Below are positions 1,163 to 44,192 of a DNA stretch of 64,000 bases, in pieces. The DNA comes from Candidatus Methylomirabilota bacterium (GTDB lineage Bacteria; Methylomirabilota; Methylomirabilia; Rokubacteriales; CSP1-6): contig DASYUQ010000077.1 of assembly GCA_036001065.1 (NCBI GenBank), forward strand, positions 12,299-76,298. Reading direction: 5' to 3'. Position numbers and translations under genes: made by a program. The notes under the pieces were generated by a model. The model was not told the origin of the DNA. It saw only the letters and a program-made list of their open reading frames with translations, and ran no database searches. Every line of letters starts with the position of its first letter. The first letter of the stretch is position 1.

Positions 1163-3040
1163 CTATCCAAGGAAATACCGCCTCGGATCGAAGAGCCGGA
1201 TGAGCCGCAGCTCGTCCGGCGTCGGGGGATCGAAGCGCCGCAGGGCCGGGGCGACCTTCAGCTCCCAGCCGCACGCCTCCCGCGCAGCCCGGACGGCTTC
1301 CGCCTCGGGCGGCCCCGCCAGGACGCCCGTCAGGATCAGCTCGGAGCTCTCGTCGGGCTTCTCGTACACGCCCCGGTCCGACACGACGGTCGTGACGCGC
1401 GTGCCCGGCGCCGTGATGTACGGCGCCTTGTCGACGAAGCGCTCCCGGCTCTGGGCCAGCGTCACGACGACCTCCCGCGCCGACGAGGCGATGTCGTTGG
1501 CTCCGCCCGAGCCCGTGATGTACAGGGTCCCCGGCACGATGGTCGAGTTGATGTTGCCGTGCTTGTCGATCTGCCCCGCCGCCAGCGAGCCGAGGCAGCG
1601 GTTCTCGCTCCCGCCCATGAAGATGCCCATAACGTGGAAGATGTCGGTGAGCATCTTGGACGACGGGAAGTTGCGGAACGAGAAGACGAACGGCTCGGCC
1701 GGGCGCGGCAGATAGCCGACCATCCCCGTCTCGGCCATCAGCTCCACGTCGACGCCGGCGGCCTTCAGCTCGTAGGCGCTGAGCCAGGCGGCCAGGTTCG
1801 AGTTGCCCACGCCGGCCAGGAAGGCGCGATAGCCCCGCGCCCTCACCTTCTCGCCGAGCAGGCGCGCCGCGGCCACCACCATCATCTCCGCTGCGGTGAA
1901 GCCGCCGTCGGCGGGAATGGCGGGCGCGAGCATCTCCAGCTCCCAGACCCAGGCGTCGGTGTGGGCGCGGCCCTTGACCTCCATCAGCCGCTGGTAGCCC
2001 AGCCGGGCGACGTAGGCCCCCTGGTCCGGCACCTCCAGCATCCACTCCTTGATCCAGGCCTCCGCCGTCTCGCGCTTCCGGAAGGCGCGGCGCAGCGTGA
2101 GGATGAAGTCGAGGTCCTCCGCGTATCCCTCCAGCTCGGCGACGTTCATGCCGTACATCCCGGCGGGATGGGCCCCGAACGGCGCCTCCACCACGGCCGC
2201 GACGTACTGTCCCGGCAGTCGCACCAACGGGGCGTGGCGGCGGATGAACTCGGTCGAGACGACCTTCTCGACGCTGACGATGGCGCCCCCGCGGGCGGCC
2301 ATCGCCGCGTAGAAGTTCTCGTTGAGGGGCGCGGCGGCGAGGACGTTGCCGGCGCGGTCGGCGGCCCAGGCGTGAAACAGCGCCACATCCGGCTTGAGCG
2401 AGCGCACGAACCCGACCCTTCGAGCGCCGGCTCCGCCGGCACAACCCTCCGATGGGGAGGTTCGGAGGGGGTCGTGAGGCCCTCTCTGACTAGGGATCTC
2501 GGAGGGGGCCGTAACGTCCGCCCCCTCCGAAAAAAACGGGTCGGGGGCGGCGAGGAAATCGCCATCGCGCGCGTTGTCCTCCTCCATCGAGGAGCCGAGC
2601 AGCGAGCGCGTGGGCATGAAGGGCACGCCCAGCGCGCCCCCGATCAGCCTGAGCGGCATCGTCAGCATCGACCAGTTCTGGACGGCCACCTGGCCGCCGA
2701 GCACGGCGCGGCCGACCAGCGGCTGGGGCGTCGGATAAGGATAGCCCTCGCCGATGAAGGTCGTGACGAGGCGCTCGACGAGGCCGCCCACGACGAACGC
2801 CGTCCAGGGCGAGCCGAACCCGGTCATCGCCAGCGTCCAGCCCGGCCTCCGGCCCCACCACTGGCGGATCACCTCTCGCACCAGCGCGTTCGGGCGGCCG
2901 TGGGCGGCGCCCAGGTAGATGGTCTGGCGCGGCGCGATCAGGCGCCGCACCGCCTCCTCCAGGGTCGTCACCTTGTCCGGCCCTTCGGTGGGCGGCAGCG
3001 CGAGGCGTCGCCCGATCAGCTCCGCGTAGTCCGAGCGCAT
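1163..3040 (-). CDS. Family I CoA-transferase, fused alpha-like + beta-like subunits (GctAB/AtoDA-type), with an about 39-aa in-frame repeat-derived insertion
   Basis: 625-aa ORF. The C-terminal half carries the beta-subunit catalytic-glutamate motif (GGSENRCLGSLAAGQIDKHGNINSTIV). The N-terminal half resembles the alpha subunit. Residues about 168-207 (PFFSEGADVTAPSEIPSQRGPHDPLRTSPSEGCAGGAGARRVG) are encoded by repeat copy A. Confidence 0.65.
   Translation of the reverse strand: MRSDYAELIGRRLALPPTEGPDKVTTLEEAVRRLIAPRQTIYLGAAHGRPNALVREVIRQWWGRRPGWTLAMTGFGSPWTAFVVGGLVERLVTTFIGEGYPYPTPQPLVGRAVLGGQVAVQNWSMLTMPLRLIGGALGVPFMPTRSLLGSSMEEDNARDGDFLAAPDPFFSEGADVTAPSEIPSQRGPHDPLRTSPSEGCAGGAGARRVGFVRSLKPDVALFHAWAADRAGNVLAAAPLNENFYAAMAARGGAIVSVEKVVSTEFIRRHAPLVRLPGQYVAAVVEAPFGAHPAGMYGMNVAELEGYAEDLDFILTLRRAFRKRETAEAWIKEWMLEVPDQGAYVARLGYQRLMEVKGRAHTDAWVWELEMLAPAIPADGGFTAAEMMVVAAARLLGEKVRARGYRAFLAGVGNSNLAAWLSAYELKAAGVDVELMAETGMVGYLPRPAEPFVFSFRNFPSSKMLTDIFHVMGIFMGGSENRCLGSLAAGQIDKHGNINSTIVPGTLYITGSGGANDIASSAREVVVTLAQSRERFVDKAPYITAPGTRVTTVVSDRGVYEKPDESSELILTGVLAGPPEAEAVRAAREACGWELKVAPALRRFDPPTPDELRLIRLFDPRRYFLG
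2420..2537. repeat. GC-rich palindromic repeat element, copy A (forward orientation), inside the CoA-transferase CDS in-frame
   Basis: Sequence: ttcgagcgccggctccgccggc...gatggggaggttcggagggggtcgtgaggccctctctgactagggatctcggagggggccgtaacgtccgccccctccgaaaaaaa. It is near-identical to copy B (32414-32520) and shares 5' and 3' modules with copies C, D, E and F. Internal hairpins: GCCGGCtccGCCGGC and TTCGGAGGGGG...CCCCCTCCGAA. Confidence 0.65.
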
Positions 3041-8821: not shown

Positions 8822-9509
8822 GGCGCTTCAGCTCCGCTTCGGACGGCCGCAGATAGATCGGAACGAGGTCGGCGACGGCGACGGTATCGCCGGCCAGGAG
8901 CCGGGCGAGCCCCAGGACGCCCACCGAGGCCGGCGACGGGACGCGTCGGTGCGGCGGGGCCGGGCGCGCATGCGGGGTGCGAATGGTGGCCGCCGCGTCG
9001 CCGAGGAGGATGACGGGCTCCGTCATCCGGGCGGCCAGGGCCCCGGGAGCGAGCGCGAGGTAGTCTGACTCCCGCTGCATCGCGGCCCCGTCCCATCGGT
9101 AGAACGCGCAGTAGACCTCCCCCTTACGGGCGTCGAGCACGGGGCACACCGGCAGCGACGCGAAGGGAAGCGATGCCGCCATCGCGTCGAGCGTAGGCAC
9201 CGCCGCGACCGGGATGCCGAGGGCCAGCGCCAGCCCCTTCACCGCGCTCAGCCCGATCCGCAGTCCGGTGAACGAGCCGGGTCCGACAGCGACGGCCAAG
9301 CCCTGCAGGTCGGCCGGCGTCCAGGCGGCGTCGGTCAGCAACCGGTCGATGGCCGGCAGCAGCCGCTCGGAGTGCGTGGCGCTCACGTCGAGCGAGTACT
9401 CGCCGCGGAGCCGCTCGCCGTCCAGCAGGGCCACGCCGCCCGCCAGCGTCGAAGTTTCGACCGCTAGAACGCGCACGGGCGCCAGTCTAGCACGCGGCGC
9501 CAGAGCCAA
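8802..9509 (-). CDS. tsaB: tRNA threonylcarbamoyladenosine biosynthesis protein TsaB (YeaZ)
   Basis: VRVLAVETSTLAGGVALLDG...HSERLLPAIDRLL...GPGSFTGLRIGLSAVKGLALA is canonical inactive-Kae1 TsaB. Confidence 0.75.
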   Translation of the reverse strand: MALAPRARLAPVRVLAVETSTLAGGVALLDGERLRGEYSLDVSATHSERLLPAIDRLLTDAAWTPADLQGLAVAVGPGSFTGLRIGLSAVKGLALALGIPVAAVPTLDAMAASLPFASLPVCPVLDARKGEVYCAFYRWDGAAMQRESDYLALAPGALAARMTEPVILLGDAAATIRTPHARPAPPHRRVPSPASVGVLGLARLLAGDTVAVADLVPIYLRPSEAELKRRGVTVH

Positions 9510-10231: not shown

Positions 10232-10284
10232 TTCCGGCCTTTCAAGCTGTCCGGCCAAGCCCCGCCTCGTCTGTCACCAGGTCT

Positions 10285-10300
10285 TGGCACCCCTCTTGCG
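10285..10300 (+). promoter_or_regulatory. Sigma-54 (RpoN) -24/-12 promoter
   Basis: TGGCACccctcTTGCG matches TGGCAC-N5-TTGCW exactly. It lies 47 nt upstream of the ATG at 10347. Confidence 0.5.
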
Positions 10301-10346
10301 TAGTCACCGTGAGGCGAAACTTCTGGCATCGCCCGAGAGGTGCCTA

Positions 10347-11099
10347 ATGTATAGGCAGGCAATCCCGCTCCTCGGTCTCGTTCTCTCGCTCGCGGTCACG
10401 AGCCTCGCGGACGCCGAGCCGGTGACGGTCCTGTTTCCGGAGGGCGTGACGCGGGCCTTCCCCATCCTACGCTCCATGGACAACGAAAAGCTCGCCCAGG
10501 GTGACCTCAGCCAGGTCGTGCGGGGTGACAAGGTTTACAGCCGCCTGGTGTTCCGCTTCAAGGACGGTTCGATCTACGACGAGAGCGTCGTCTTCACCCA
10601 GCGCGAAGTATTCACCCTCCTGAGCTACCGCATTGTGCAGAAGGGCCCCTCTTTCCCGGAGACGCTGGAGGCGGCCATCGACCGGGACACCGGACGCTAC
10701 CAGGTCCGCTACCGCGCGGACGAGGACAGCCCCGAAGAGGTCCTCACCGGAAAGTTCGCGCTCCCCGACGACGCCTACAACGGGATGCTCTTCCTGATCG
10801 TGAAGAACCTGCCCGCGCGGGCCGGGGAGACGGTTTCGATAGTGGCGTTCACGCCGAAGCCGCGGGCCGTGAAGATGCAGCTCCTGCCGGTGGCCGAAGA
10901 TCGCATGCTGGTCAGCGACTCGCCGATGCAGGCCACCCGCTATCACATCCGGCCGCAGCTCGGCCTGTTCGCCTCGCTCCTGGTGGCCGACATCCCCGAT
11001 CTCCGCATGTGGATTCTTCCCGGGGAGGCTCCGGCGTTCCTGCGCGCGGAGGGTCCGCTCTACTTCATGGGGCCGGTCTGGAGGATCGACCCCTACTAG
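10347..11099 (+). CDS. Secreted hypothetical protein (signal peptide, no lipobox)
   Basis: Start at the second Met of the track ORF (MYRQAIPLLGLVLSLAVTSLADA|EP). There is no recognisable catalytic motif. The local GC is lower than surrounding DNA. Confidence 0.5.
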   Translation: MYRQAIPLLGLVLSLAVTSLADAEPVTVLFPEGVTRAFPILRSMDNEKLAQGDLSQVVRGDKVYSRLVFRFKDGSIYDESVVFTQREVFTLLSYRIVQKGPSFPETLEAAIDRDTGRYQVRYRADEDSPEEVLTGKFALPDDAYNGMLFLIVKNLPARAGETVSIVAFTPKPRAVKMQLLPVAEDRMLVSDSPMQATRYHIRPQLGLFASLLVADIPDLRMWILPGEAPAFLRAEGPLYFMGPVWRIDPY

Positions 11100-11196
11100 A
11101 TTCCTCGGAGGGGGGCTTCGCCCCCCTTCCGAAACCTCCCCCCAGGATCCATTGCGCGGGCTAAGCCCGCGCTCGAGCCGGCCGCCCCCAGAAACT
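11100..11196. repeat. GC-rich palindromic repeat element, diverged copy F (reverse orientation), between convergent genes
   Basis: cggaggggggcttcgccccccttccgaaacctccccccaggatccattgcgcgggctaagcccgcgctcgag parallels copies D and E (cggagggggcctcggcggccccctccgaggcctcccccagga..gatggcgccggcggagccggcgctcgaa). The terminal hairpin is kept by compensatory changes (GCGCGGGCtaaGCCCGCGC versus GCGCCGGCggaGCCGGCGC). Confidence 0.5.
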
Positions 11197-13334: not shown

Positions 13335-13392
13335 GATTCTGGCCTGCAGACTCTCCCCCGCAGATTCTCCCCCCGCGAATTCTGCCCGCAAT
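13335..13392. repeat. Four tandem imperfect 14-15 bp direct repeats (GAYTCT-SSCCC-GCA)
   Basis: GATTCTGGCCTGCA / GACTCTCCCCCGCA / GATTCTCCCCCCGC / GAATTCTGCCCGCA. They lie directly 3' of the nrdR stop and about 320 bp upstream of the radical SAM start. A CCTCAGaccCTGAGG palindrome at 13321-13335 abuts them. Confidence 0.4.
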
Positions 13393-18164: not shown

Positions 18165-18225
18165 TACAGGCTCGCCTCGGCCGCGGGGGCCCCAGCCCCC
18201 GGCCGTCCTGCGGCTCGCACGGCCA

Positions 18226-18822
18226 TCAGGCGAGCTCCCGGACCAGCGCCCGCGCGCGCTCCAGCTCCTCGGGCGTATTGACGTTCATGAACACGACGGC
18301 GGGGTCGACGTACCGCGCGATCTCCGCCTCATCGATCACGACGACGCGCACCTTGTCGAAGAACCCCACGATCTTCAGCCGCCCGGCCAGCAACCGCTCC
18401 TCCATGTGCGGTAGGCAGCTCTTCTGGTAGGCGGCGTGCATCGTCTCGTACTGATCGCCCACGCGCGGGATCACGACGTCCCCGAGCGGAGCGTGCTCGA
18501 CGACGAGACGGACGACCTCGCGGCGCAGGAACGGCATGTCACAGGCCACGGTGAACGCCGCCCCGCCGGAGGCCGCCTTGAGGCCCGAGTAGATGCCGCC
18601 CAGGGAGCCGTGATCCGGATAGACGTCGGGCACCATGGGCAGGCCCAGGAAGGCATAGAGCTCCGGCATGTTCGTGACGATCAGCAGGTCGTCCACGGCG
18701 CCCGCGAGCACCCCGGCCACGCGCTCGATGATCCGTCGGCCGCCCAGGTCCATCAGCGCCTTGGGTTGCCCGCCCATGCGGGTGCTCTTGCCACCGGCCT
18801 GGATCACGCCCGTGATTTTCAT
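18226..18822 (-). CDS. mobA: Molybdenum cofactor guanylyltransferase
   Basis: Start ATG 18822 (MKITGVIQAGGKSTRMGGQPKAL...). The first 29 aa of the track ORF are a read-through of repeat copy D. Confidence 0.7.
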   Translation of the reverse strand: MKITGVIQAGGKSTRMGGQPKALMDLGGRRIIERVAGVLAGAVDDLLIVTNMPELYAFLGLPMVPDVYPDHGSLGGIYSGLKAASGGAAFTVACDMPFLRREVVRLVVEHAPLGDVVIPRVGDQYETMHAAYQKSCLPHMEERLLAGRLKIVGFFDKVRVVVIDEAEIARYVDPAVVFMNVNTPEELERARALVRELA

Positions 18823-18896
18823 TCGAAGGGGGCCTCGGCGGCCCCCTCCGAGGCCTCCCCCAGGATCGATGGCGCCGGCAAAGCCGACGCTCGAAC
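18823..18896. repeat. GC-rich palindromic repeat element, copy D (reverse orientation), immediately 5' of mobA
   Basis: cgaagggggcctcggcggccccctccgaggcctcccccaggatcgatggcgccggcaaagccgacgctcgaa is about 90% identical to copy E over about 70 bp. Confidence 0.6.
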
Positions 18897-22234: not shown

Positions 22235-23920
22235 TCAGTGGCGGAAGTGACGGATGCCGGTGAAGACCATCGCCACCCCGCGCTCGTCGGCCGCCGCGAT
22301 GACCTCCTGATCCCGGAGCGAGCCGCCCGGCTGGATGACGGCCGTGACCCCGGCCTGAGCCACGACGTCGAGACCGTCGCGGAACGGGAAGAACGCGTCG
22401 GAGGCGCAGACGCTGCCTTCGGTGCCGAGCCCGGCCTCGCGCGCCCGCATGACGGCCAGGCGCGCGGAGTCCAGGCGATTCATCTGCCCGGCCCCGACGC
22501 CGACCACCTGATCGCCTGTGGTCAGCACGATGGCGTTCGATTTGACGTGCTTGGCCACCCGCCAGGCGAAGCCGAGCGCGGCCATCTCGTCGGGAGTGGG
22601 CGCGCGCCGGGTGACCGTCTTGAGGGTCTTCTCATCGAGGTCGACCGCGTCCGCCGCCTGCACCAGCAGACCACCGAGCACGCTCCGGTACTCGACGAGC
22701 CGCGGGAGCCGTTCGCACGGTACCTGGAGCACACGGCACTTCTTCTTCGTCCGCCTGAGCTCCTCCAGCGCCTCGGGAACGAAGGCGGGCGCGAAGAGGA
22801 TCTCGACGAAGATGCCGGCGAGCTCCCGGACGACGGCCGGGTCGAAGGCGCGGTTGACGCCGACGATCCCGCCGTAGATCGATACCGGATCCGACGCTTT
22901 CGCCTTGGCCATGGCGGCGCCGGCGGTGGCGGCGACCGCGGCACCGCACGGGTTGGTGTGCTTGACGACGACGGCCGCCGGCTCGGCGAACTCGAGCAAC
23001 AGCCCCAGGGCCGCCGAGAGGTCGAGCAGATTGTTGTAACCGAGCTCGGGCCCGTGCAGCTGCCGCATGGCGCCGAGCCCGAAGGGGAACCCGCCGAGGA
23101 GGCGGTAGAACGCCGCCGCCTGGTGGGGGTTCTCGCCGTACCTCAGACCGAGCGCCCGCTCGGCCTCGAGCCGCAGCCGCTCCGGAAACTGCTCCGTTCG
23201 AGCGCCGGCTTCGCCGGCGCAATCCGTCCTGGGGGAGGTCTCGGAGGGGACCGTCGCGCCCTCCGGGCGCGCCTGTGGAGTCGCCCCCTCCGACCGGGAT
23301 GGGAGGCGAAGCCCCCCTCCGAGGGAGGCGGCCCCCTCCGAAGAAAAATGAGCGGCGATCGCCGCGTCGTATTCGGCCGTCCGCCGGAACGCTTGCTGGG
23401 CCAGACGAGCGCGCGTCTCGTCGCTAAGCGCGCCGCCGCTGGCCCGCAGCTCTCCCAGGACCTCCGCGTACTGCGAGGGATCGGTGACGACGGCCACGCT
23501 CGCGTGGTTCTTGGCGGCGGCGCGAATCATGGCCGGACCCCCGATGTCGATCTGCTCGATCGCCTCGGCGCGCGTGACGCCGGGCCGCGCCACCGTGGCC
23601 TCGAACGGGTAGAGCGCCACGACGACGAGGTCGATCGGCGGGATCCCGTGCTGCTCGAGCGCGGCCGCATGCTCGGGGGAGTCCCGGCGGGCCAGGATGC
23701 CTCCGTGAATCTTGGGATGGAGCGTCTTGACACGACCGTCGAGCATCTCGGGAAACCCGGTGACGTCGGCGACCTCGCGCACCGGCACCCCCGAGTCCCG
23801 GAGCAGCCGAGCCGTCCCGCCCGTCGAGAGGAGCTCCACCCCCAGCTCCCGGAGGGCTCTGGCCAGCTCGACCACACCGGTCTTGTCGTGAACGCTCACG
23901 AGCGCACGCCGGACCTTCAT
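22235..23920 (-). CDS. purH: Bifunctional AICAR transformylase / IMP cyclohydrolase, with repeat-derived about 50-aa insertion in the interdomain linker
   Basis: MGS-like N-domain (VRRALVSVHDKTG...) and AICARFT C-domain. The linker segment SSEGAASLGGGLRLPSRSEGATPQARPEGATVPSETSPRTDCAGEAGARTEQ is encoded by repeat copy C. Confidence 0.85.
   Translation of the reverse strand: MKVRRALVSVHDKTGVVELARALRELGVELLSTGGTARLLRDSGVPVREVADVTGFPEMLDGRVKTLHPKIHGGILARRDSPEHAAALEQHGIPPIDLVVVALYPFEATVARPGVTRAEAIEQIDIGGPAMIRAAAKNHASVAVVTDPSQYAEVLGELRASGGALSDETRARLAQQAFRRTAEYDAAIAAHFSSEGAASLGGGLRLPSRSEGATPQARPEGATVPSETSPRTDCAGEAGARTEQFPERLRLEAERALGLRYGENPHQAAAFYRLLGGFPFGLGAMRQLHGPELGYNNLLDLSAALGLLLEFAEPAAVVVKHTNPCGAAVAATAGAAMAKAKASDPVSIYGGIVGVNRAFDPAVVRELAGIFVEILFAPAFVPEALEELRRTKKKCRVLQVPCERLPRLVEYRSVLGGLLVQAADAVDLDEKTLKTVTRRAPTPDEMAALGFAWRVAKHVKSNAIVLTTGDQVVGVGAGQMNRLDSARLAVMRAREAGLGTEGSVCASDAFFPFRDGLDVVAQAGVTAVIQPGGSLRDQEVIAAADERGVAMVFTGIRHFRH
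23199..23349. repeat. GC-rich palindromic repeat element, long copy C (forward orientation), in-frame inside purH
   Basis: The 5' module ttcgagcgccggcttcgccggcgcaatccgtcctgggggaggtctcggagggga matches the reverse complement of copy E's 3' end (A and C share the core TTCGAGCGCCGGCTYCGCCGGC and GGGGAGG-YCGGAGGGG). The 3' module ggccccctccgaagaaaaa matches copies A and B. Confidence 0.6.
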
Positions 23921-23924
23921 TCGA

Positions 23925-24539
23925 TCACCATCCCACGATCACTCTCCTGCCGACGATCCTAAGCCGCCCTTCCGCGAAGAGCCGCACCGCCTGCGGATAG
24001 AGCCGGTGCTCCTCGGCGAGGATCCGTGCCGCCAGCGTCTCCTCGGTGTCGTCGGGCTGCACGGGGACGCTCGATTGTAAGATGATCGGGCCGGTGTCCA
24101 CGCCTTCGTCGACGAAGTGGACGGTGGCGCCCGAGATCTTCACGCCATGGTCGAGCGCCTGGCGCTGGGCGTTCAGCCCGGGGAAGGCCGGCAGCAGCGA
24201 GGGGTGGATGTTCATGATCCGCCCCGTCCACGCCCGGACGAACGCCGGTCCGAGGACACGCATGAAGCCGGCCAGGCAGACGAGCCCGACCTGATGCGCC
24301 TCGAGGACCTTGGTGATGGCGGCGTCGTAGGCCTCGCGGGCGCCGAAGTCCTTGGGGTTCAGGAGCACGGCCGGCACCCCCCGCTCGGCGGCGATCTTCA
24401 GCGCCCGGGCGCCCTCGCGATCGGAGACGACCACGGCGACCCGGGCCGGAAAGTCGGTGCGCGCGCTGGCGTCGAGGATCGCCTGGAGGTTCGAGCCGCG
24501 ACCGGAGGCGAGCACGCCGACCCGGAGAAGCTCCTTCAC
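23925..24539 (-). CDS. purN: Phosphoribosylglycinamide formyltransferase
   Basis: VGVLASGRGSNLQAIL...HPSLLPAFPG. Confidence 0.8.
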   Translation of the reverse strand: MKELLRVGVLASGRGSNLQAILDASARTDFPARVAVVVSDREGARALKIAAERGVPAVLLNPKDFGAREAYDAAITKVLEAHQVGLVCLAGFMRVLGPAFVRAWTGRIMNIHPSLLPAFPGLNAQRQALDHGVKISGATVHFVDEGVDTGPIILQSSVPVQPDDTEETLAARILAEEHRLYPQAVRLFAEGRLRIVGRRVIVGW

Positions 24540-25834
24540 GCGGCGTCGCGCTCCTTGGGGGCGGCGGCGTGAAGGGCGCAGATCGGGCAGCGTGGCACCT
24601 GTCGCATGATGGCCGAGTCCCGCGGGAAGAAGCGGGCCAGGGACCAGTCGAGCGCCACCTGGAGTTGCTTGCGGACGCCGACCAACTTCAGGAGGTGGAG
24701 CGCGTTCCAGAAGAGCCAGGCCGGGTAGCCGGAGAACCGGAACCCCATGACCTCGACCACGGCGTCCTTCTCGCCCAGCGACACCAGCATCCCGCGCGGC
24801 GCAAAGTCGATCGGCCGCAGCGCGCGGCCGGCGAGGTCGGCCACGATGTTCTCGGCGACCAGGCGCCCGTGGGCCAGCGCCGCCGGGATGATGGGAATGG
24901 AGGCTTGGGGCTTGCCCTCGATGCTGACCGCGTCCCCGGCGCCGTAGACCTCCGGATGGCCGGGAATCTGGAGGAAGCTGTTGACGACGATCCGCCCCAG
25001 TCGATCGTGGCCGACGGGGAGGTGGGCCAGTGCCGGGTGGCCCTTGACGCCCGCGGCCCAGACGATCAGGCCCGCCGCGATCGACTCGCCACCCCCTACC
25101 TCGACGACGCCGGGCAGCACCCGCGTGACGCGCGTTCGGGTCTTGACCTCGATGCCCTCGCGGTGCAGCCGCCGGTGCGCTCGTTCCGCGAGCGCGGGAT
25201 GGACGCCGCGCAGGATCTCCTCGCCCGCCTCGAGGACGACCAGGCGGTAGTCGCCGGCCTCGATGCCGCGGTAGCGCGGCACCACATACGAATGGAAGAA
25301 GTCGTGCAGCTCCGCCACCAGCTCGACGCCGGTGTAGCCGCCGCCAACGACGCAGACCGTCAGCATGCGCCGACGGACGTCGGGATCGGGCTCGTGATCG
25401 GCGTGCTCGGCGAGGTCGATCAGATGATCGCGCAGGAGGATGGCGTCGTCGAGGTGCTTGTACGGGAGCGCGTGCTCCTCGACGCCGGGGATCCCGAAGC
25501 TCGGCGTCGTTCCGCCGAGCGCGATCACCAGACGGTCATAGGCCACGGTCCCCTCGGCGAGGACGACCCGACGCGCGGCCAGATCGATGTCGAGCACCTG
25601 GTCGCGGCGGAAGCGGAATCGGCGGGCCCCGCGGAGGTCGCGGATCGGTTGGATGATGTGGCGCGGCTCGACGAGCGAGGAGGCCACCTGGGGCAGCAGC
25701 GGGGTGAACAGCAGATAGTTGCGGTCGCTCACCAGGAGCAGCTCGACATCCTGCCGGGGGCCCAGCCGGCGATCCAGCACGCGGATCGCCTCCAGCCCGG
25801 CGAAGCCGCCGCCCAGCACCGCGATGCGGCTCAC
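24536..25834 (-). CDS. ndh: Type II NADH:quinone oxidoreductase (NDH-2)-family flavoprotein, embedded in the pur operon
   Basis: GTG start 25834 (VSRIAVLGGGFAGLEA...). It has two Rossmann GxGxxG motifs (the second is VVGGGYTGVE). GTGA overlap with the purM stop and ATGA overlap with the purN start. Confidence 0.6.
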   Translation of the reverse strand: MSRIAVLGGGFAGLEAIRVLDRRLGPRQDVELLLVSDRNYLLFTPLLPQVASSLVEPRHIIQPIRDLRGARRFRFRRDQVLDIDLAARRVVLAEGTVAYDRLVIALGGTTPSFGIPGVEEHALPYKHLDDAILLRDHLIDLAEHADHEPDPDVRRRMLTVCVVGGGYTGVELVAELHDFFHSYVVPRYRGIEAGDYRLVVLEAGEEILRGVHPALAERAHRRLHREGIEVKTRTRVTRVLPGVVEVGGGESIAAGLIVWAAGVKGHPALAHLPVGHDRLGRIVVNSFLQIPGHPEVYGAGDAVSIEGKPQASIPIIPAALAHGRLVAENIVADLAGRALRPIDFAPRGMLVSLGEKDAVVEVMGFRFSGYPAWLFWNALHLLKLVGVRKQLQVALDWSLARFFPRDSAIMRQVPRCPICALHAAAPKERDAA

Positions 25835-26877: not shown

Positions 26878-26952
26878 AGTCGGAGGGGGCCTCGGCGGCC
26901 CCCTCCGAGGCCTCCCCCAGGAAGGGATGGCGCCGGCGGAGCCGGCGCTCGA
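26878..26952. repeat. GC-rich palindromic repeat element, copy E (reverse orientation), in the purF-purM intergenic spacer
   Basis: agtcggagggggcctcggcggccccctccgaggcctcccccaggaagggatggcgccggcggagccggcgctcgaa. Its 3' 22 nt are the exact reverse complement of copy A's 5' 22 nt (ttcgagcgccggctccgccggc). Confidence 0.6.
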
Positions 26953-27000
26953 AACAGCGAGCAGTGGCCGGAGTAAGCTGGCGCCATTCGCCAACAACCG

Positions 27001-32388: not shown

Positions 32389-32413
32389 CGCTCTACCCTC
32401 TATTTCGCGCTTT

Positions 32414-32520
32414 TCGAGCGGCGGCTTTGCCGCCGCGATCCTATGGGGTGGTTCGGAGGGGGCCGCGAGGCCCCCTCTGACTAGGGATCCCGGAGGGGGC
32501 GGCGCCCCCCTCCGACAAAA
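32414..32520. repeat. GC-rich palindromic repeat element, copy B (forward orientation), overlapping the purB 3' end
   Basis: ttcgagcggcggctttgccgccgcgatcctatggggtggttcggagggggccgcgaggccccctctgactagggatcccggagggggcggcgcccccctccgacaaaa. It is near-identical to copy A. The 5' hairpin has compensatory changes (GCGGCGGCtttGCCGCCGC versus GCCGGCtccGCCGGC). Confidence 0.65.
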
Positions 32521-33808
32521 GTCCGGCCCGCCTGAAGATCGCGTCGACATGACGGAGGTACCACGCCGGATCGAAGCACGCCTTCAGCTCGTCCGGCCCG
32601 ACTCGCTCGGTGATCGCCGGGTCGGCGGCGAGAAGCTCCAGGAATGACCGCCGCTCCCGCCAGGCCTGCATGGCGTTGCGCTGCACGATCTCGTAGGCCG
32701 CCTGGCGCGCCAGCCCCGTCTCGGTGAGCTTGAGCAGCACCCGCTGGGAGTAGACGAGGCCGTAGCTCCGCTCGAGGTTCTCCGCCATGCGAGCCGGGTC
32801 GACCTCGAGGCCCTCGACGACGAACGTCGTCAGATCGAGCAGGTAGTCGACGAGGATGGTCGAGTCCGGCAGGATGACGCGCTCGACGGAGGAGTGGCTG
32901 ATGTCGCGCTCGTGCCACAGCGCGACATTCTCGAGCGCGGCCAGCGCGTTGGTCCTGACGAGCCGCGCCAGCCCGCAGATGCGCTCGGTCAGCTCGGGGT
33001 TGCGCTTGTGGGGCATGGCGCTGGAGCCCTTCTGGCCCTCGGCGAAGGGCTCCTGGGCCTCCAGGATCTCCGTCCGCTGGAGGCCCCGGATCTCCAGGGC
33101 GATCTTCTCGAGGGAGGCGGCGGCGACGGCGAGCCCCGTAGAGAACTCCGCGTGGCGGTCGCGCTGGACGATCTGGGTGGAGACGGCCGCCGGCTCCAGG
33201 CCCAGCTCCCGGCAGACCTCCTCCTCGATCTCGGGCTCGACGTGGGCGAAGTTGCCGACGGCTCCCGACAGCTTGCCCACGGCGACGGCCGCCCGCGCCC
33301 GGCGGAGGCGCTCGAGGTTCCGCCCGGCCTCCGTGTACCACACCGCCACCTTCAGGCCGAACGTCGTCGGCTCGGCGTGAACGCCGTGAGTCCGGCCGAC
33401 GATTAGGGTGTCCTTGTGGCGGCGGGCCAGCTCGCCGAGTGCCGCGCGCAACCGCTCCTGGCCGGCGATGAGGAGGTCGGCGGCCTCGCGAAGCTGGAGG
33501 GCCAGCGCCGTGTCCCACACGTCGTTGGTGGTGAGCCCGATGTGGACGAAGCGGGAGTCCGCGCCCAGCTGCTCCTCGAGGCTGGTGAGGAGCGCGATCA
33601 TCTCGTGCTTGACCCGCCGCTGGATCTCGAGGATCCGGTCGACGTCGACGCGAGCCTTGGCCCGGACGCGGGCCAAGGCCTCGACCGGGATGCGGCCGCG
33701 GCGGGCATAGGCCTCGCACACGGCCAGCTCCACGCGCAGCCAGGTGGCGTACTTGGACTCCTCGCTCCAGATTCGCCCCATGGCCGGACGCGTGTACCGC
33801 TCGATCAC
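32441..33808 (-). CDS. purB: Adenylosuccinate lyase, with C-terminal about 25 aa and stop codon supplied by a repeat element
   Basis: Canonical PurB through ...WYLRHVDAIFRRAGL. It then reads LSEGGAAPSGIPSQRGPRGPLRTTP* from repeat copy B. The same repeat-encoded peptide frame is seen in the CoA-transferase (SEIPSQRGPHDPLRTSP). Confidence 0.85.
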   Translation of the reverse strand: MIERYTRPAMGRIWSEESKYATWLRVELAVCEAYARRGRIPVEALARVRAKARVDVDRILEIQRRVKHEMIALLTSLEEQLGADSRFVHIGLTTNDVWDTALALQLREAADLLIAGQERLRAALGELARRHKDTLIVGRTHGVHAEPTTFGLKVAVWYTEAGRNLERLRRARAAVAVGKLSGAVGNFAHVEPEIEEEVCRELGLEPAAVSTQIVQRDRHAEFSTGLAVAAASLEKIALEIRGLQRTEILEAQEPFAEGQKGSSAMPHKRNPELTERICGLARLVRTNALAALENVALWHERDISHSSVERVILPDSTILVDYLLDLTTFVVEGLEVDPARMAENLERSYGLVYSQRVLLKLTETGLARQAAYEIVQRNAMQAWRERRSFLELLAADPAITERVGPDELKACFDPAWYLRHVDAIFRRAGLLSEGGAAPSGIPSQRGPRGPLRTTP

Positions 33809-43861: not shown

Positions 43862-44192
43862 TCACCTCCTACGATCTACGATACGTTTCCCGCTCGCCTC
43901 GGGCGCAGGGGCCCCTGGCTGCCCTGCGGCTCGCACCGCGGCCCCCGGCCGTCCTGCGGCTCGCACGACCATCTCCAGACTGGCCCCAGCCTCGCACGGT
44001 TTCCTGAACGCCTGCGCGAATCTCCCTGACTTCATCGCGCGCTCGAGACAGCCCGGGTCCGCGCACAGGTAGGCGCCACGGCCGACTCCCGTGGGGTCGT
44101 GGACGACGACGCCGTCCGGACGGCGAACCAACCGCACCAGCTCCAGCTTGGGTCGCACCTGCCGGCATCCCACGCACGTGCGCCGAGGACCT

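Follow-up and report, generated by a model that had tools for sequence, protein, structure and literature searches.

A PurH interdomain linker segment very probably derived from a small palindromic repeat of Candidatus Rokubacteria

Small palindromic repeats read in frame within functional housekeeping genes are best known from Rickettsia, whose palindromic elements (RPE; Ogata et al., 2000, Science; Ogata et al., 2002, Genome Res), in the summary given in PMC10969869, measure ~100-150 bp, add peptide segments judged compatible with the fold, occur also in non-coding DNA and, in some families, have nearly half of their copies within open reading frames (ORFs). Outside Rickettsia, in-frame palindromic repeats were still treated as conjecture in that 2024 review (PMC10969869). 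Repetitive extragenic palindromic sequences (REP) and bacterial interspersed mosaic elements (BIME) are short, GC-rich imperfect palindromes located mainly downstream of coding regions, which sometimes supply stop codons or C-terminal residues and occasionally lie wholly within ORFs (Di Nocera et al., 2013, PMC3733652); different REPs occupy about the same recB site in two Xanthomonas species, and neutrality of intragenic copies in "flexible linkers or loops" was explicitly suggested (PMC3733652). MITEs, the miniature inverted-repeat transposable elements (ERIC, BOX and others), are also small, non-autonomous repeats able to create translational fusions (PMC10969869). Here we describe a repeat family from a 64,000-nt stretch of Candidatus Methylomirabilota DNA (contig DASYUQ010000077.1, hereafter the window), in which the interdomain linker of PurH, the bifunctional IMP cyclohydrolase / AICAR transformylase, contains a segment that very probably stems from a family of small, non-coding palindromic repeats of Candidatus Rokubacteria (Methylomirabilota), of which one copy is translated in frame there. 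Our search of the literature found no paper describing repeats in Rokubacteria.

The purH coding sequence (22235..23920, minus strand) encodes 561 amino acid residues, which align over their full length with PurH entries of the PDB (Mycobacterium tuberculosis PurH, 3zzm, E=7e-134), and lies in a purN-purH-TPR-purD arrangement common to the window and the recovered orthologue loci. The motifs which we take to be catalytic, with residue roles presumed from ATIC (GRVKTLHP, LYPF, IDIGGP, AAKNH and KHTNPCG), are all retained, and residues K64, Y103, D124, K136, K319 and H320 occupy invariant columns among 83 orthologues including the window protein. Between the two Pfam domains, MGS-like (PF02142, 3.5e-25) and AICARFT_IMPCHas (PF01808, 2.9e-105), residues 193-244 (SSEGAASLGGGLRLPSRSEGATPQARPEGATVPSETSPRTDCAGEAGARTEQ; 23189..23344, minus strand) form an in-frame extra segment unmatched in solved structures by phmmer, the alignment passing from 196 to 209 in 3zzm and from 191 to 195 in 9ou7; solved structures have 3-12 residues at the interdomain site versus ~50 extra residues in the window protein. 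An earlier note on this DNA had read the region as ...DAAIAAHFS[SEGAAS...GARTEQ]FPERLRLEAE, exactly as the minus-strand ORF encodes it, and its claim of an insertion of about 50 residues where other PurH proteins have a short linker is borne out both by the structures and by a syntenic orthologue with 9 residues (L084). Its coordinates, 23199-23349, were off by 5-10 nt, and the recognisable repeat DNA within purH spans 23197-23341.

In an AlphaFold model built with the 83 orthologues, both PurH domains are folded with confidence around the insert, whose residues 197-244, located between a helix (166-197) and a strand (252-259), have a predicted local distance difference test (pLDDT) score below 50 and no secondary structure; the insert peptide is accordingly predicted to be disordered, and it has no conserved motif beyond that dictated by the DNA palindrome. 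An intein or intron was rejected as an explanation, there being no motifs and no Rfam match in purH and the frame simply being read through, and so was the fusion, across an intergenic element, of a purH that was split ancestrally, because insert-free fused orthologues and an insert-free outgroup exist.

The repeat family has six copies in the window (A, B, Bb, C in purH, D and E). When nhmmer was given a leave-one-out profile of the five remaining copies only, 23197-23261 was matched at E=4.4e-13, which, together with the flanking Pfam domains, upholds the view that a dispersed-repeat copy sits in frame at the PurH interdomain linker. The motif GCCCCCTCCGA occurs 18 times in the window against 6.3 expected, a number reached in none of 100 shuffles. 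The unit is ~73 nt long (97 nt in a long variant), has ~75% GC and consists, in this order, of an A/T-rich tail, hairpin 2 (TCGGAGGGGGCC-loop-GGCCCCCTCCGA), a spacer (CCTCCCCCAGGA plus 6-7 nt), hairpin 1 (GCGCCGGC-loop-GCCGGCGC) and TCGAA; the PurH copy displays the family-defining succession of hairpin 2, CCTCCCCCAGGA spacer, hairpin 1 and TCGAA. Hairpin stability within the family ranges from -42 to -94 kcal/mol (z -2.2 to -4.6), with module order preserved and stem variants compensatory between copies. At the gathering threshold, Rfam 15 gave no match anywhere in the window.

Rather than the single 150-bp unit that had been proposed, the PurH insert is a composite of one 97-nt unit and two further, accreted hairpin-2-like modules, all on the minus strand. 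The core unit (23197..23293), of the "long hairpin-2" subtype, comprises hairpin 1 at the element's 3' end (GCGCCGGC-gaa-GCCGGCGC, then TCGAA; 23197..23220), a spacer conserved across all family copies (GACCTCCCCCAGGACGGATT; 23221..23240) and the long form of hairpin 2 with a nested GGCGCGCC palindrome (23241..23293). Its assignment relies on the leave-one-out profile and on 92/97 (95%) identity to an element located, in reverse orientation, inside the CoA-transferase gene of another organism (locus L208), whose host-gene identity at that evolutionary distance is merely ~76%. The same subtype is also encoded in P0122, P0123, P0135, P0019 and L208. Module H2-b (TCGGAGGGGGGCTTCGCCTCCCATCC; 23297..23322) recurs in L081, L082 and L086 and is 93% complementary to copy B at 11103-11130, while the truncated module H2-a (23323..23341) aligns with a full module in L081 and L082, than which it is shorter by 12 nt. 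The T-rich left flank (CATTTTTCT; 23342..23350) encodes H-F-S.

Comparison of PurH orthologues revealed that the insert is not private to the window genome. The closest relatives carry the names Candidatus Rokubacteria/Rokuibacteriota or Methylomirabilota; a contig scan with PurH returned mostly generic PurH matches, the informative ones being L001 (Rokuibacteriota) and L039. Among 120 homologues with 73-88% identity, protein length varies from 510 to 559 residues, with nearly all of the variation in the interdomain linker, which measures 9 to ~52 residues across the phylum. Linkers contain recurring strings (SEGAS..APSETSPR.DGAGKAGARTE, GGGLRPPS and the frame-shifted ETSPQEG.ARAKPALEP), partial remnants (e.g., SSEGASTVKAGARTE) or are empty (e.g., GADAAGGER). 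In an independent test, 5-mers were taken from six-frame translations of 83 intergenic copies and a protein was scored positive with at least three such 5-mers: their frequency was 0.171 per residue in PurH linkers vs 0.0016 elsewhere in PurH (~100-fold), and repeat-derived linker peptides were found in 67 of the 121 Rokubacterial PurH proteins, whereas 36 had no such 5-mer at all. The earlier note's idea had been exposed to the chance that all orthologues share the segment independently of the repeat; this is not what was found, because the orthologues share the repeat itself and 36 lack it. A search of a representative proteome library with the 52-residue insert gave four matches, two of them unrelated repetitive proteins, this short low-complexity sequence being a weak query.

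The repeat-derived linkers differ in subtype, frame and length among orthologues, and in a linker-masked tree proteins with the various insert types are intermingled with those having remnants or empty linkers. The syntenic orthologue L084 has an empty 9-residue linker, so that the segment is derived, and the outgroup L039 is likewise without insert. Three alleles with 92.6-93.9% identity outside the linker carry a long hairpin 2 (window), a D-type (L081) and a B-type insert (L082), and they differ by whole-module indels of -12, +36 and +24 nt, all multiples of three. Such module indels and subtype swaps between these alleles show that the PurH insert is derived, older than the window genome and still being remodelled under frame constraint. 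A different hairpin pair, "family 2" (PPSSRVDRAEGSI), occupies the PurH linker of some Rokubacteria. In L001 (6560-6660) and L087 (10590-10660), the linker hairpins are GGGGGG..CCCCCC and GTCGATCGAGCC-gag-GGCTCGATCG; these family 2 hairpins had no second copy in the DNA examined.

A second gene of the window behaves alike. Copy A (2417..2537, minus strand; two hairpin-2 modules plus hairpin 1; nhmmer E=3.5e-16) is read through in frame by a fused CoA-transferase gene (1163..3040, minus strand) as DPFF[SEGADVTAPSEIPSQRGPHDPLRTSPSEGCAGGAGARR]VGF. In an alignment of the window protein with 120 orthologues, 83 of the 121 rows have the short empty-site form DPF-xxxx-RVGF, and others are occupied at the DPF loop by the basic unit, by the B-subtype or the long hairpin-2 subtype, or by remnants. 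One orthologue (P0142) contains a copy in reverse orientation, with a DNA match of E=1.3e-15 on the opposite strand, which proves at least two independent insertion events at this one loop; the reversed element of L208 sits at this loop. Comparison with empty-site DNA (L209) revealed that a 4-codon loop was replaced, with no clean target duplication. Flanking copy A, the host DNA contains an 8-bp inverted repeat (2409-2416 / 2538-2545; CCCGACCC / GGGTCGGG), which lengthens the stem predicted around the whole copy.

The usual position of the family was determined by scanning metagenome contigs with an exact consensus pattern, which yielded at least 120 loci (675 kb) with at least 137 copies in at least 100 unique contexts. 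The context classifier was checked on the window, where two of the six copies (A and C) are read through and one (E) forms a C-terminal tail. Among the matches listed, 77 of the 81 classifiable contexts are intergenic, four are C-terminal tails and none is read through; in-frame copies are thus rare exceptions for the family. In the same matches, the hairpin-2 end of 33 of 62 copies has the stop codon of a same-strand gene upstream of it at a distance of 0-21 nt (mode 4), and 9 of 63 copies have the end of a convergent gene no more than 25 nt away. Positions -8 to -1 of the flank have 57% A+T vs 31% in the background (p ~5e-24). An A/T-rich tract of ~4-9 nt is found at the hairpin-2 end of most copies, for example in the window (23342-23350, 2538-2543 and 18815-18822) and in L208 (3607-3616), and in intergenic copies the tract often contains the stop codon of the upstream gene. 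Where the copy is reversed, as in L208, the tract is still beside the hairpin-2 end and therefore behaves as part of the element. As regards reading frame, 57% of arbitrary 150-nt frames in the window (70% GC) are stop-free and the repeat unit is open in five to six of its six frames; with such high GC and mostly stop-free frames, a net length of 3n at a permissive site suffices for read-through.

Compared with the described systems, the Rokubacterial repeat resembles RPEs in being a small palindromic repeat found in frame in functional housekeeping genes, with an extra peptide segment judged compatible with the fold and with relatives in non-coding DNA, as far as the account in PMC10969869 goes. 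It differs from them, on the same account, in its size (73-97 nt) and in its host, a 70%-GC free-living soil phylum instead of AT-rich obligate intracellular Rickettsia, in the absence of the RPE CGTC tag from the consensus ends, and in the zero of 81 read-through contexts among the matches listed and usual position just past stop codons, set against the high in-ORF fraction reported there for RPEs. Because base composition differs, homology with RPEs would be unlikely. With REPs it shares GC-rich imperfect palindromes, the predominant location downstream of coding regions (33/62 copies among the matches listed), the occasional supply of stop codons and C-terminal residues and, more rarely, a place wholly within an ORF (PMC3733652). 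REPs, however, are single palindromes of 20-40 bp, whereas the Rokubacterial element is a fixed two-hairpin unit with a conserved spacer; its consensus of 67 aligned copies, which begins with TCGGAGG... and ends in ...GGCGCTCGAA, lacks a GTAG or CGTC terminal tetranucleotide, CGTC being present only in the single variant copy Bb (GACGCTCGAA), on the other strand; and no RAYT gene was identified among the 30 window ORFs scanned with Pfam. Recurrence at one site in 67 of 121 PurH orthologues exceeds the scale of the cited REP cases. MITEs are similar as small non-autonomous repeats giving translational fusions upon insertion, but have terminal inverted repeats of 15-30 bp and target-site duplications as their defining marks, and the Rokubacterial element shows neither. 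Elements of the IS200/IS605 type have subterminal hairpins in place of inverted repeats, produce no target duplication and lie in a strand- and orientation-specific position beside a short target. The resemblance of the Rokubacterial element to them is a lead only; the element differs in that neither TnpA nor RAYT was found in the DNA examined, nor can a constant target tetra- or pentanucleotide be discerned.

The best reading of these data is that the in-gene element is REP/RPE-like and tolerated at permissive sites. Such an element normally sits downstream of a gene on its own strand, only a few nucleotides past the stop codon, and it may have been spread by a trans-acting enzyme, probably one recognising hairpins, or by ectopic recombination. 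Copies occasionally enter coding sequence where, with ~75% GC and hardly a frame that is not open, the element is read through whenever its net length is a multiple of three. Survival within genes would be limited to sites tolerating a disordered loop rich in Ser, Glu, Gly, Ala, Pro and Arg, such as the PurH linker, and hairpin modules are afterwards gained, lost and swapped, in multiples of 3 nt throughout, giving the present range of linker lengths. What we infer here is that the element moves, by transposition or ectopic recombination, that the insert is nearly neutral and that PurH stays active; PurH would be essential and the element mobile, as the earlier note had called them, in the same conditional sense. 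The further proposal in that note, selection for frame-compatible insertions at flexible linkers, stands as regards tolerance at a disordered site, with a second gene alike; frame compatibility itself calls for no special adaptation.

Several observations weigh against this reading. Flank and end alignments of 67 copies showed neither terminal inverted repeats (15-30 bp MITE criterion) nor a consistent target-site duplication, L090 alone having a 13-nt flanking direct repeat that is not general among these copies, and no transposase was found among the 30 window ORFs, nor any RAYT or TnpA gene; for these reasons, mobility is inferred from distribution only. The exact consensus pattern favours consensus-like copies, so that older coding copies may be under-represented in the context counts. 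Since the neighbour-joining tree is not robust, one ancient insertion followed by diversification is not fully separable from repeated insertion in PurH. Finally, the exact window allele occurs on two other contigs, but L085 matches the window without a difference over 7.7 kb and is for that reason not independent proof of the assembly.

Among the rival explanations, a somewhat unlikely one is that insertion is guided to the PurH linker and the CoA-transferase loop by a sequence or structure that the element's machinery recognises there, instead of random landing followed by selection. It would account for CoA-transferase insertions of different subtypes and both orientations within ~6 codons of the DPF motif, for the several subtypes and the unrelated hairpin pair sharing one PurH linker, for the highly non-random A/T-rich left flank and for the tight 4-nt mode past stop codons among the matches listed. 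Yet the A/T-rich tract moves with the reversed element and so resembles a part of it and not of the target, the empty sites have no shared motif beyond a Phe codon, and filtering over hundreds of lineages can alone yield recurrence at a few permissive sites. That the insert is functional, its mRNA hairpins modulating translation or mRNA processing or its disordered peptide tuning linker length or interactions, is improbable: although the structure inside the coding sequence is very stable (-93.7 kcal/mol, z -3.3), the insert is kept in over half of the orthologues and its DNA is slightly more conserved between distant orthologues than the remainder of the gene (83.5% vs 76.5%, window vs L086), this excess is marginal and could be due to gene conversion from other copies. 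Moreover, 36 of 121 orthologues do without the insert, its length, frame and subtype vary freely, the element occurs also in unrelated proteins and mostly in intergenic DNA, and the peptide is a predicted disordered one devoid of any conserved motif of its own. The broader version, in which the element is repeatedly retained at domain boundaries and loops as a tunable module acting through mRNA hairpins or disordered peptide, strikes us as highly improbable; were it true, examples would be ribosome pausing between the IMP cyclohydrolase and AICAR transformylase halves, aiding co-translational folding, and the setting of linker length, and the repeats, instead of being passengers, would supply Rokubacteria with adaptive variation in protein and mRNA.

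A chimera or collapsed repeat produced by metagenome assembly deserves consideration given that the window is metagenome-derived, the repeat family is abundant and L085, the sole other allele-bearing contig examined, has the same sequence. However, related multi-module inserts are present at the same codon in L081 (NCBI GCA_036820235.1), L082 and L083 (two JGI samples) and L086 (ENA), the reading frame is intact and all differences between alleles are 3n; these inserts from other projects and samples, and the 3n-only differences, strongly disfavour an artefact, for which we see very little chance. Hardly any credence can be given to a native, clade-specific low-complexity linker that is repeat-like merely through GC richness. 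Similar peptides do occur in many orthologues and short linkers often start with GGGL, but the leave-one-out match, the 97 nt shared at 95% identity with a copy in a different gene, the preserved module order and hairpins, the ~100-fold enrichment of repeat 5-mers over the rest of the protein and the empty site in syntenic orthologues effectively refute this reading.

With a tolerated REP/RPE-like element as the preferred reading, the occurrence in a free-living, high-GC, uncultured soil phylum of in-frame palindromic repeats otherwise best known from Rickettsia offers a natural experiment, in which the same site can be compared across more than 100 orthologues of two enzymes, some of them empty there and others with a filled, a partly deleted, a frame-shifted or an inverted version. 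Permissive versus targeted recurrence, the rate of turnover of repeat arrays under frame constraint and the linker length tolerated by a two-domain enzyme are all testable through this variation. For annotation, Rokubacterial proteins will be found to carry loops and C-terminal tails that are repeat-encoded and not native domain sequence.

The remaining window copies are B, Bb, D and E. Copy B (11105..11177, plus strand) is intergenic, 5 nt past the stop of gene 10284..11099; copy Bb (18823..18895, plus strand) is intergenic and directly upstream of the start of a MobA-like gene; copy D (26880..26953, plus strand) lies between purF and purM, with an orthologous copy in L082 and L083. Copy E (32413..32516, minus strand), between purB and purC, gives PurB (32441..33808) a C-terminal tail of 25 residues (LSEGGAAPSGIPSQRGPRGPLRTTP) and its stop codon, and Bacillus subtilis PurB (431 residues) aligns at positions 1-430 with residues 1-430 of the 455 in the window protein. 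PurB of L082 (446 residues) also overlaps a copy, and that of L086 (431 residues) does not.

In the same gene neighbourhood, an NDH-2-type pyridine-nucleotide disulfide oxidoreductase is encoded between purM and purN (24536-25830 region of the window) and likewise in L081, L082 and L087; it is not present in L084 and L086. A second, unrelated dispersed repeat of 38 nt (…CCCCCGGCCGTCCTGCGGCTCGCAC…) occurs at 18190-18227, 43906-43943 and 43936-43973, thus including a tandem pair, with a weak match at 8903-8922 (four matches vs 0.06 expected by chance), and is found also in L132 and L174. Tandem repeats of 14-15 nt (GATTCTCCCCCGCA), giving no Rfam match, are located at 13335-13387, between an NrdR-like gene and a B12-binding radical SAM gene.

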